A stretch of DNA of 58,711 nucleotides, counting the filler, from Narcine bancroftii (lineage: Eukaryota): the NCBI RefSeq assembly GCF_036971445.1. It is 5 parts of 5 records of this genome, joined end to end, with 100 filler letters (N's around TTAATTAATTAA, not from the genome) between each part and the next. Parts side by side here need not be neighbours in the genome. Positions count along the whole stretch, not along the records: positions 2,255 to 30,945 come from NC_091477.1; 4 more parts are not named here. One strand, given 5' to 3'. A model generated the notes under the pieces. That model worked only from the letters and a program-made list of their open reading frames with translations. It ran no database searches and had not been told where the DNA came from. Shown one piece after another: positions 14,706 to 17,142 of this stretch (the first letter of the stretch is position 1; each line of letters opens with the position of its first letter). The position numbers and the translations under genes were made by a program.

Positions 14706-14817
14706 CCTAGTAAGAGTCTTTATCTTTATTAGTATTATGTATATTAGTAAGGCTTTTTTTGTAATCTTGGGGAAGGGGCTTAATTATGATGGTGGCACAG
14801 TTGACCTAGTGACTAGT
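14706..14817 (+). repeat. 112-bp direct repeat, copy 1
   Basis: CCTAGTAAGAGTCTTTATC...GACCTAGTGACTAGT is identical by eye to 17031-17142. Confidence 0.95.
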
Positions 14818-15057
14818 TGTGATAGTACAGATCTATCACCAATGTACATAGTGTATATAGTTACTGTATCTAGACTGTGCTTACAGCGATTGGCTGAGAG
14901 CTAAGCCACACCTATTGTTTGGGCCTTAAAGGGTTGTGTCCCTAGCCAGGTCGGATCATTCCGGACTGGTCGGCCACCTGTGAAGAGCTCCGGTCTTTTG
15001 CTAATAAAAGCCTTGGTTTGGATCAACAAGTCTTTGGTTCTTTCGACGAGCTCTACA
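14818..15057 (+). mobile_element. 5' LTR (240 bp) of a Ty3/Gypsy retrotransposon
   Basis: TGT...ACA termini; ATTGG at 14889; TATA-like CTTAAAG at ~14925; AATAAA at 15003; gag ATG 35 nt downstream. No 3' LTR is present, so the right boundary is inferred. Confidence 0.8.
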
Positions 15058-15091
15058 ATTTTATTAGCAAAAGGAATTTTTTTTGAAAGGG

Positions 15092-17035
15092 ATGGAGCGT
15101 TTAACTCGGCCAGAAAAACTTGATATCGACCCACAGTCAGCTACAGCCTTCAAAGCCTTTAACTTCTGGCTGCTGAACTTTGAAAACTTCCTGAGATTCA
15201 TTCAGGTGGAGGAGGATAACCAGCGTCTAACAGCATTGCTGTCTATGGTGTCCTTGAGAGTCTACGAGAACATCCAGGATGAGACCACTTACACCGCAGC
15301 CATAAAGGTACTGAAAGGACTGTATGATCAACCGGTGAACAGAGTTCATGCCCGGCTCATGCTTGCGTCGAGGAAACAACAGCCCGGCGAGTCCAGCAGG
15401 GCATATTTACAAGTACTAAAGGCATTGGGCAAGGACTGTAACTGTGTGGACAAAACTGCTGCCGAGATCACTAGCGACCTCGTCCGGGATGCCTATGTGG
15501 CCGGGCTCCGATCGAACGAAGTGAGGCTGCGTTTGCTCGAACAAGGGGTAGAAAAACTAGAGGACGTGGCCCGGATTGCAATCACGATGGAGGATGCAGC
15601 CTTAAAGTCCACCGAGCTCTCTAGGGACTGGACCCCTCGTTCTGATGTGAGTAGAGTGCCCTTCTACCCTACCCCTGACGGCCTGTCGGCTGCTGCTACC
15701 CTGCCCCGTGCGAACCCAAAATGTTATTTCTGCGGGAGGAACAAGCACAGCAGGTCCCAGTGCCCAGCAAGAAAAGCCAGGTGCCAGAAGTGCCTTAAAA
15801 ACGTCCACTTTGCTGCAGTCTGTAGGTCTAAAATGGCCGCCAGCAAACACAGTGCCTCGTGTGAAGCCCAACCGCCACTATCCCATTCAAACTCTTCTTC
15901 CCCAGAGCTCTCGTCCAATGAGAGCGAGGGCTCCCCTGCACGGCAACGCCTGACGTCACGGAGACGCCGAACCCGGAAGGGGCAACCCACCGTCGCAACC
16001 ATGGTGATGGCCTGCCTCTCGCCCGCCGCTGCTGCCGCCGCCACAGTCACCCCCGGGGCCGACGCTACCGCCGCTGCTGCCACCGCCACGGACACCCCCG
16101 GGGCCGACACTACCGCCGCTGCTGCCGCCGCCACGGACACCCCCGGGGCCGACGCTACCGCCGCTGCTGCCGCCGCCACGGACACCCCCGGGGCCGACGC
16201 TACCGCCGCTGCTGCCGCCGCCACGGACACCCCCGGGGCCGACGCTACCGCCGCTGCCGCCGCCGCCACAGACACCCCCGGGGCCGACGCTACCGCCGCT
16301 GCTGCCGCCGCCACGGACACCTCCGGGGCCGACGCTACAGCCGCTGCTGCCGCCGCCACGGACACCCCCGGGGCCGACGCTACCGCCGCTGCTGCTGCCG
16401 CCACAGACACCCCCGCGGCCAACCAGGTGCTCACCCTAGCGTCCATCGCTGACGACCGCCAGGGCCCGACCACCGATCACGAGCAACTACAAACCCCACT
16501 ACTTACCATTCACCCGCCACAACAGCACTTCCGGGAGGTTCTCCAACCTGCTCCTCGAGCGTTGACTACGTCATCCTGTTGCGTGACGTCATCCCGTTGC
16601 GTGACGTCATCGCGCAAAACTCGCCTGTCAACTGCTTCAATAACATTAAACCAGCAATGCTCTCATCCCCTCACCAGAGCAATGGAACTGATTAAAGTGC
16701 ATGGACACTACACCAATTGCTTATTTGACTCTGGGTCAACTGACAGTTTTATCCAGCCAGATCTGGCCCTCCGTTGGGGACTTGACATTATCCCCACTAC
16801 CCAGAGGATCTCATTAGCGACGAGGTCGCACTCGACTGGGATAAAGGGGTATTGCATCGCCACGCTGGAAGTACAGGGCGTGACGGTCACCCACTTTAAA
16901 TTATTCGTCCTTCCCCAATTGTGCGCCCCAGTGTTGCTGGGATTAGACTTCCAGTGTCAGTTCCAAACGGTGTCCCTACACTTTGGGGGACCCCACGCCC
17001 CCCTCTCGGTCTGCCATCGCCATCGCCCCACCTAG
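15092..17035 (+). CDS. Ty3/Gypsy Gag-aspartic protease polyprotein, truncated before RT
   Basis: Uninterrupted ORF: capsid-like region (RKQQPGES), two Zn knuckles (CYFCGRNKHSRSQC, CQKCLKNVHFAAVC), retropepsin motifs LFDSGS and VLLGLDF. The stop codon comes from the flanking repeat (TAG 17033-17035). Confidence 0.92.
   Translation: MERLTRPEKLDIDPQSATAFKAFNFWLLNFENFLRFIQVEEDNQRLTALLSMVSLRVYENIQDETTYTAAIKVLKGLYDQPVNRVHARLMLASRKQQPGESSRAYLQVLKALGKDCNCVDKTAAEITSDLVRDAYVAGLRSNEVRLRLLEQGVEKLEDVARIAITMEDAALKSTELSRDWTPRSDVSRVPFYPTPDGLSAAATLPRANPKCYFCGRNKHSRSQCPARKARCQKCLKNVHFAAVCRSKMAASKHSASCEAQPPLSHSNSSSPELSSNESEGSPARQRLTSRRRRTRKGQPTVATMVMACLSPAAAAAATVTPGADATAAAATATDTPGADTTAAAAAATDTPGADATAAAAAATDTPGADATAAAAAATDTPGADATAAAAAATDTPGADATAAAAAATDTSGADATAAAAAATDTPGADATAAAAAATDTPAANQVLTLASIADDRQGPTTDHEQLQTPLLTIHPPQQHFREVLQPAPRALTTSSCCVTSSRCVTSSRKTRLSTASITLNQQCSHPLTRAMELIKVHGHYTNCLFDSGSTDSFIQPDLALRWGLDIIPTTQRISLATRSHSTGIKGYCIATLEVQGVTVTHFKLFVLPQLCAPVLLGLDFQCQFQTVSLHFGGPHAPLSVCHRHRPT
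16024..16416 (+). repeat. In-frame 45-bp tandem repeat (~8.7 copies) encoding DTPGADATAAAAAAT
   Basis: GCCACGGACACCCCCGGGGCCGACGCTACCGCCGCTGCTGCCGCC units, nearly identical, CpGs largely intact. Confidence 0.95.
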
Positions 17036-17142
17036 TAAGAGTCTTTATCTTTATTAGTATTATGTATATTAGTAAGGCTTTTTTTGTAATCTTGGGGAAG
17101 GGGCTTAATTATGATGGTGGCACAGTTGACCTAGTGACTAGT
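17031..17142 (+). repeat. 112-bp direct repeat, copy 2
   Basis: Matches 14706-14817; the host element resumes at 17143. Confidence 0.95.

Follow-up and report, generated by a model that had tools for sequence, protein, structure and literature searches.

A Gypsy retrotransposon lineage without a detected chromodomain and its probable self-priming from an LTR segment that usually holds the poly(A) signal

The window considered here, a stretch of 58,711 nucleotides (filler included) from the ray Narcine bancroftii (NCBI RefSeq assembly GCF_036971445.1), contains a truncated copy of a Gypsy long terminal repeat (LTR) retrotransposon belonging to a clade without a chromodomain. The copy, whose features all lie on the plus strand, opens with a 240-bp 5' LTR with TG...CA ends (14818-15057). 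Behind it lies a gag-protease open reading frame (ORF; 15092-17030) that begins at the ATG at 15092, encodes two CCHC knuckles, a 45-nt tandem repeat and an aspartyl protease (PR), and stops short near 17030, after the protease. We find no reverse transcriptase (RT), RNase H (RH), integrase (IN) or 3' LTR at this copy, and a second LTR is absent from the whole window. Its Gag is 98% identical to that of P0012, a full-length polyprotein of N. bancroftii (1,457 aa; PR 525-610, RT 719-877, RH 963-1064, IN 1155-1251). The Gag-PR-RT-RH-IN order of P0012 is that of Ty3/Gypsy elements, and the TG...CA ends in the window and the 5-bp target duplications of relatives are those of an LTR element. Since the window copy is truncated and cannot replicate alone, any question about how it is primed is a question about its family.

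That question arises from a pairing between the LTR and the sequence just behind it. CTTTTGCTAATAAAA, at 14995-15009 within the LTR, is the exact reverse complement of TTTTATTAGCAAAAG, at 15059-15073, and a wobble pair (T14994:G15074) lengthens the duplex. The first segment, which we call the arm, is the predicted self-primer, and its 13-bp clade-wide core spans 14997-15009. The second is the predicted primer-binding site (PBS), which is complementary to the arm and lacks a TGG; it follows the terminal CA (15056-15057) and a single spacer A (15058). The arm contains AATAAA (15003-15008), the sole A[AT]TAAA of the LTR, and is followed directly by GCCT (15010-15013), which would lie just past the predicted cut. 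A first-pass annotation had already described the exact 15-nt match, its G-U extension, the single AATAAA and the missing TGG, and all of these hold in the sequence. We put the probability that this clade, by analogy with Tf1, draws the primer for reverse transcription from its own RNA at roughly 0.8.

Contigs from X1, which may be the window's own source, and from X10, a run of another study, delimit the LTR. Summed contig depth in X1 rises from 1,099 (14789-14815) to 814,531 (14816-14842) at the LTR start, and falls from 1,062,250 (15032-15058) to 92,153 (15059-15085) at its end. Contigs diverge into unlike sequence behind 15057 (392 in X1, 25 in X10), and three X1 contigs join 15057 to 14818. 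The depth steps, the loose contig ends and these joints thus bear out the CA at which the first-pass annotation had placed the LTR end. In both runs the LTR (14818-15057) has about 10 times the summed depth of the internal region (15059-15400), a hint of many solo LTRs, with the reservation that depth does not equal copy number. The window's G at 15073 is the minority letter in these two DNA runs, with A making up 46,219 of 51,407 depth (~90%) in X1 and 2,602 of 2,634 (~99%) in X10, so that the perfect duplex is 14 bp in most copies there; in X5, A accounts for 6,037 of 39,704 depth and the window letter is the majority. Taken alone, the inverted repeat is modest evidence and not decisive against chance: the window holds two perfect 15-bp inverted repeats with arms within ~100 nt, the arm/PBS pair included, and the fold of 14940-15110 has a z of -1.43. 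It is position and conservation that decide.

Relatives were sought with a Pol-based alignment (A1), the Gag alignment being too diverged for scanning. The search yielded the best 80 of 104 metagenome loci plus 11 loci from contigs of metagenome-assembled genomes (MAGs), and 36 of these 91 loci, those with a Gag start and more than 80 nt upstream, formed the scan set. A perfect helix of 10-18 bp lies at the same place in 29 of the 36, versus 2 of 66 control scans (shifted 450 nt downstream or 400 nt upstream) with at least 10 bp. Among the seven misses, the contig of L021 is split in the LTR, with the arm at the other contig end and a 12-nt complement; by eye, L040 and L073 have the helix with one mismatch and one wobble, and L028, L038, L057 and L068 are decayed copies of helix-bearing families. 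An apparent CA-A-TGG at the start of the L021 contig was rejected, as the real PBS lies further on, 12 nt complementary to its own arm. The relatives fell into 19 groups when clustered at 80% gag identity, and the family counts that follow use the best-preserved copy of each group, with L021 omitted and L024 added (n = 19). These families are 42-65% identical to P0012 in Pol. Elements in relatives measure 3,975-4,210 bp, and LTR pairs with 5-bp target duplications fix their LTR ends, for example in L001, L008, L009, L010, L013, L014 and L086. At the protein level, 911 Gag representatives score E 1e-10 or better; a search of viral contigs found no relative, and the hosts of the named relatives, all compared as proteins, are rays, echinoderms, a sea anemone, a nematode and arthropods.

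The PBS begins one base past the LTR CA in all 19 families (in L043 after one-base re-anchoring), and its letters follow the arm of the same family. Own arm and PBS pair at a mean of 12.8 of 13 positions, compared with 7.7 for swapped arms, and only 2 of 342 swapped combinations reach 12 paired positions. Over positions 6-13, own arms are fully paired (8 of 8) in 17 families, while swapped arms average 3.9 and never reach 8; all four Watson-Crick pair types are seen at each of positions 8, 9, 12 and 13. Pairing length ranges from 11 to 18 nt, being near complete through position 13 and then Watson-Crick in 14, 12 and 7 families at positions 14, 15 and 16. These are the compensatory changes that the first-pass annotation had proposed to look for among related families. 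Not one of the 19 families has a TGG-type tRNA PBS, and this, together with the covariation of each PBS with its own arm, excludes a shared cellular primer. The idea that a cellular RNA (a tRNA 3' end, a tRNA fragment or an snRNA) does the priming and that the LTR match is incidental is therefore largely refuted, because the PBS letters vary by family and always track the family's own LTR. A tRNA-fragment match could still apply to the ray family alone, but we regard a cellular primer as very improbable. ARAGORN, run on 12 loci, made one call, which was unrelated.

Paired changes are also seen among close relatives. L008 is 98.5-99.2% identical to four siblings, and carries one arm change in both of its LTRs along with the matching PBS change, as well as one unmatched change at position 14. 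In a sister subfamily from the ray runs, a two-letter stretch has become a three-letter stretch on both arms with complementarity kept, and one 382-nt X5 contig differs at both 15002 and 15066. Several copies in each of the L001 and L008 families retain a mismatch at position 14, as would be expected if only ~13 nt were copied. The self-priming suggested in the first-pass annotation thus gains support from the covariation across families, the missing TGG, the fixed register one base past the CA and the paired change in L008.

When the families are aligned on the 3' end of the arm, that end falls at a conserved junction, AAA/RCCT (the slash marking the arm end). A is kept at -3, -2 and -1 in 19, 18 and 18 of the 19 families, and G/A, C, C and T occupy +1 to +4 in 16, 16, 16 and 18; within the arm, A-11 is kept in 14, G-10 (15000 in the window) in 18 and A-6 in 15. 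The cut that the first-pass annotation had predicted after 15009 coincides with this junction. From -70 to -12 relative to the arm end, no conserved position was found. The onset of conservation at -11 suggests that the primer is the 5' end of the RNA, and pairing at -12 and -13 means that starts slightly earlier than -11 are needed; we place the RNA 5' end at -11 to -13 with moderate confidence. The commonest letters from -13 to -8 are TTAGTT, which we take to resemble an invertebrate initiator with +1 at the A; with a start there, the primer would be 11 nt long, like that of Tf1.

The first-pass annotation had placed the putative primer some 40 nt inside the transcript, and one alternative retains this geometry: transcription would start near 14958, leaving the primer ~37-40 nt inside the RNA, and the duplex would be required for silencing of the 5' poly(A) site as well. 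In the ray LTR, the TATA candidate TTAAAG (14926-14931) has TCATTC (A at 14958) 32 nt downstream, a spacing that we take to match the TATA-initiator (Inr) consensus, so that a start near 14958 may be used in the ray LTR. The duplex is predicted to form from a ~14958 start too (P 0.96-1.0), pairing beyond 13 bp in some families requires an RNA that starts further up, and AWTAAA closes the arm in 13 of the 19 families against five hits elsewhere. Across the clade, however, this geometry finds no support. The stretch from -70 to -12 is without conserved signal, TTAAAG at ~-84 is present in the ray LTR and only one other family and is thus not conserved, and a conserved TATA box at either geometry was looked for across the families and not found. 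An unpaired 5' tail would also let plus-strand synthesis overshoot the PBS, by the logic of retroviral second-strand transfer, and the canonical hexamer is missing from the arm in six families. We therefore consider an internal primer unlikely, if well short of negligible.

A model of self-priming from the RNA 5' end, built on the observed LTR boundary, the duplex with its fixed register and covariation, and the lack of a tRNA-type site, would run as follows. Transcription would start ~11-13 nt before the junction, near 14997-14999. By pairing with the PBS, the first 11-13 nt of the RNA would enclose a loop of 21-66 nt, usually with a small stacked hairpin at its beginning. RNase H of the element itself would then cleave at AAA/RCCU, just past 15009, leaving a 3'-OH from which RT would copy the spacer at 15058, U5 and the remaining R, back to 15010. 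For first-strand transfer, 15-20 nt of R would be left, from the cut to a predicted poly(A) site near 15025. During plus-strand synthesis the primer, being retained, would be copied to regenerate the PBS, and this would explain the paired changes of arm and PBS. P0012 has both an RT and an RNase H domain. In Tf1, the primer is the RNA's initial 11 bases, cut by RNase H between bases 11 and 12 (PMC7175516).

In 11 of the 19 families, against 7 of 108 control windows, the RCCT has an AGGY partner 8-25 nt downstream, and a small RCCU...AGGY hairpin is accordingly predicted to stack on the primer helix in many families, though it is imperfect in the ray family. This partner and the strong conservation of the AAA/RCCT junction would also suit self-priming in which the RNA itself or a host nuclease, rather than the element's RNase H, makes the cut. 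Against such a cut, there is no conserved unpaired core, the loop of L027 is only 21 nt long, Rfam gives no ribozyme match (two hits, E 0.28 and 0.92, far under gathering scores), and in Tf1 it is RNase H that cuts (PMC7175516). We regard it as highly improbable.

The arm also overlaps the poly(A) signal in most families. AATAAA or ATTAAA ends on the last or second-last base of the arm in 13 of the 19, and the scanned LTR stretches (~250 nt per family) hold only five other A[AT]TAAA. The six families without a canonical hexamer in the arm have GTTAAA (two), TTTAAA, GATAAA or no likeness (two), and L004 has an ATTAAA 11 nt beyond the arm. In four 5'-leader folds, the hexamer is predicted to pair with the PBS at a probability of 0.94-1.0; in two LTR-only folds its first two bases are paired at 0-0.13 and the others at 0.06-0.84. 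The first-pass annotation had proposed that the duplex masks the poly(A) site of the 5' LTR. This is structurally plausible, since the predicted folds pair AAUAAA with the PBS, but the arms of six families lack the hexamer. That such masking has a functional role is a tentative suggestion, which we would not bet on at even odds. A hexamer within 15 nt of the cap may be silenced by proximity alone. In the model, R is so short that the hexamer falls within the primer, and the overlap may be no more than a consequence of this. A search for a downstream element with more G/U than the upstream sequence found none (G+T 0.57 versus 0.62).

Retroviruses share the need to ignore the 5' copy of a hexamer present at both ends, and solve it in several ways: a hairpin together with U1 at the major splice donor in human immunodeficiency virus 1 (HIV-1), placement of the signal in U3 in RSV (Rous sarcoma virus), MMTV (mouse mammary tumor virus) and HTLV-1 (human T-cell leukemia virus 1), and a weak site in Moloney murine leukemia virus (MoMLV) (PMC3694450). 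In HIV-1 and foamy virus, this suppression at the 5' end is the work of U3 enhancers and U1 binding, and none of the three mechanisms in the portions of that source covered uses the PBS (PMC3694450). Here, in contrast, the partner strand is the PBS, which follows the 5' LTR only. One might then suppose that the duplex is purely regulatory, masking the 5' poly(A) signal or switching packaging or translation, and that some other primer is used. The predicted folds do pair the whole hexamer in the 5' context and leave it more exposed in the 3' LTR; in HIV-1, polyadenylation is regulated by a hairpin containing AAUAAA (PMC2645353). However, a mask needs no exact start one base past the CA, yet all 19 families have one, the duplex persists in the six families without a canonical arm hexamer, and no alternative primer site is seen at the LTR boundary; a purely regulatory role thus seems improbable. 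The combined proposal, that one duplex silences 5' polyadenylation and then primes, in a large animal Gypsy lineage whose self-priming arose independently of Tf1/sushi, likewise stands at less than even odds. If true, 3'-end control and the initiation of reverse transcription would be one switch, with the cut set by the stacked hairpin.

Several observations weigh against self-priming as modeled here. The flanking duplexes that Tf1 requires are absent from the 19 families, and pairing of 15-18 bp in seven of them runs past a strict -11 start. The signature of paired change amounts to one event among the loci plus one ray subfamily, and in L002, an insertion shared with L039, the arm is changed in both LTRs while the PBS does not follow; the copy model expects such an intermediate but gains no support from it. 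A generic hairpin test (at least 4 bp) did not separate families from controls (16 of 19 versus 54 of 95). The conservation p-values overstate the independence of the families, being inflated by shared ancestry, and each family is represented by its best-preserved copy. Lastly, the presumed-RNA contigs, whose depth is unable to rank element parts, show no transcript start, end or poly(A) junction.

Self-priming is best known from Tf1 and its relatives. Tf1 and Tf2 of Schizosaccharomyces pombe, Tj1, Tosmo1-3 and the Tf1/sushi elements likewise have a PBS after the LTR CA that is complementary to their own LTR (PMC7175516, PMC4600332, PMC5341516, bioRxiv 2022.12.06.519325), and self-priming has been proposed for Tj1 (PMC4600332). 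The domain order PR-RT-RH-IN is common to Tf1/sushi and this clade, and the predicted primer of 11-13 nt compares with 11 nt in Tf1. Tf1/sushi elements carry a chromodomain at the integrase C-terminus, whereas 13 of 13 clade polyproteins (six searched at E 0.001, seven more at E 1) have no chromo-family Pfam match, though a very diverged domain could escape. The three-duplex pretzel is not above control in the 19 families, either for the loop versus the sequence 3' of the PBS (5.89 versus 5.82) or for the loop head versus the U5 tail (4.21 versus 4.06). Chromodomain and pretzel together define the Tf1/sushi group (bioRxiv 2022.12.06.519325), and with neither found, the clade probably primes in the manner of Tf1/sushi elements but appears to fall outside that group; Ty3 is only a distant match. 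Further differences are a short loop with a stacked RCCU...AGGY hairpin, a poly(A) hexamer at the primer's 3' end, and a Gag with two CCHC knuckles, a motif missing from the fission-yeast elements. In Tf1 self-priming is proven, while in this clade it is predicted from sequence.

Self-priming has also been predicted for Tcn1 chromoviruses and for the plant Ty1/copia TAR elements Houba and Osr-1, from LTR-PBS complementarity of at least 10 bp that starts 0-5 nt after the LTR (PMC6317226). This clade has complementarity of that length and position, in different lineages and hosts. As self-priming was proposed for TAR outside the chromoviruses, independent origins are not new in principle. The present clade would add another self-priming solution, probably independent of Tf1/sushi and built on a different RNA architecture. 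Cigr-1 of Ciona intestinalis, ~4.2 kb long with LTRs of ~245 bp, one ORF of ~1,200 aa and a Mag-like Gag, resembles the clade in size (against the 3,975-4,210 bp above) and in Gag type, and is a tentative candidate for its nearest named kin. The Cigr-1 clade ('Gypsy-Cigr') has been reported in molluscs (PMC6238403), and peptide motifs of our clade were not found in the readable supplements of PMC8556966 and PMC6238403 or in the main texts.

The feature is real and conserved, and we read it as probable self-priming in a widespread Gypsy lineage without a chromodomain, whose primer in most families contains the poly(A) signal. Repbase notes are said to describe some animal Gypsy families as 'self-primed', which could lower its novelty. 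In the portions of the literature covered, which further include PMC3601003, PMC6934838, PMC3670739, PMC2864245, PMC7472051 and PMC10680173 and leave the Tf1 and Cigr-1 primary papers, Repbase, Dfam and GyDB outside their scope, we found no description of self-priming in this lineage or of a primer overlapping a poly(A) signal; self-priming is proven there only for Tf1 and is otherwise tied to Tf1/sushi, Tcn1 and TAR. If the elements are self-primed, neither tRNA supply nor tRNA fragments would control them, and they would be under-called by LTR finders built to require a tRNA PBS. The fixed AAA/RCCU junction provides an exact prediction of the cut position, and the hexamer inside the primer a compact model linking suppression of the 5' poly(A) site with priming.

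The window copy has further peculiarities. It is flanked by an exact 112-bp duplication of host repeat (14706-14817 and 17031-17142), abnormal compared with the usual 5-bp target duplication, and combines a precise TG start at the left with a break after the protease at the right. These flanks look like the product of one-ended integration, or of a later tandem duplication and deletion. RefSeq ray gene models named BRCA1, collectin-10 and DnaJB13 match about the first 186 Gag residues, and the BRCA1 model exits Gag at a GT splice donor after Gag codon 185 (15647-15648) into host BRCA1-like sequence; LTR-driven chimeric host transcripts may be common in the ray genome. The 45-nt tandem repeat (~15980-16430), which encodes an Ala/Thr-rich unit of 15 aa, separates the zinc knuckles from the protease; its copy content differs slightly in P0012, and the distant relatives P0016, P0018 and P0019 do not have it. 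Two more hairpins lie in U3, at 14819-14840, the very start of the LTR, and at 14945-14970.

Among the relatives, the 11 MAG loci (L081-L091) are in contigs filed as bacterial (GTDB), several with full LTR pairs and target duplications, and are probably animal DNA contaminating bacterial bins. On the contigs of L007, L011, L054, L081, L082 and L024, the pol end, polypurine tract (PPT), one LTR, PBS and gag start are consecutive, marking these contigs as collapsed repeats or one-LTR circles. Elsewhere in the window, stretches of N with a central TTAATTAATTAA spacer occupy 2154-2255, 30946-31045, 54751-54850 and 56670-56769.
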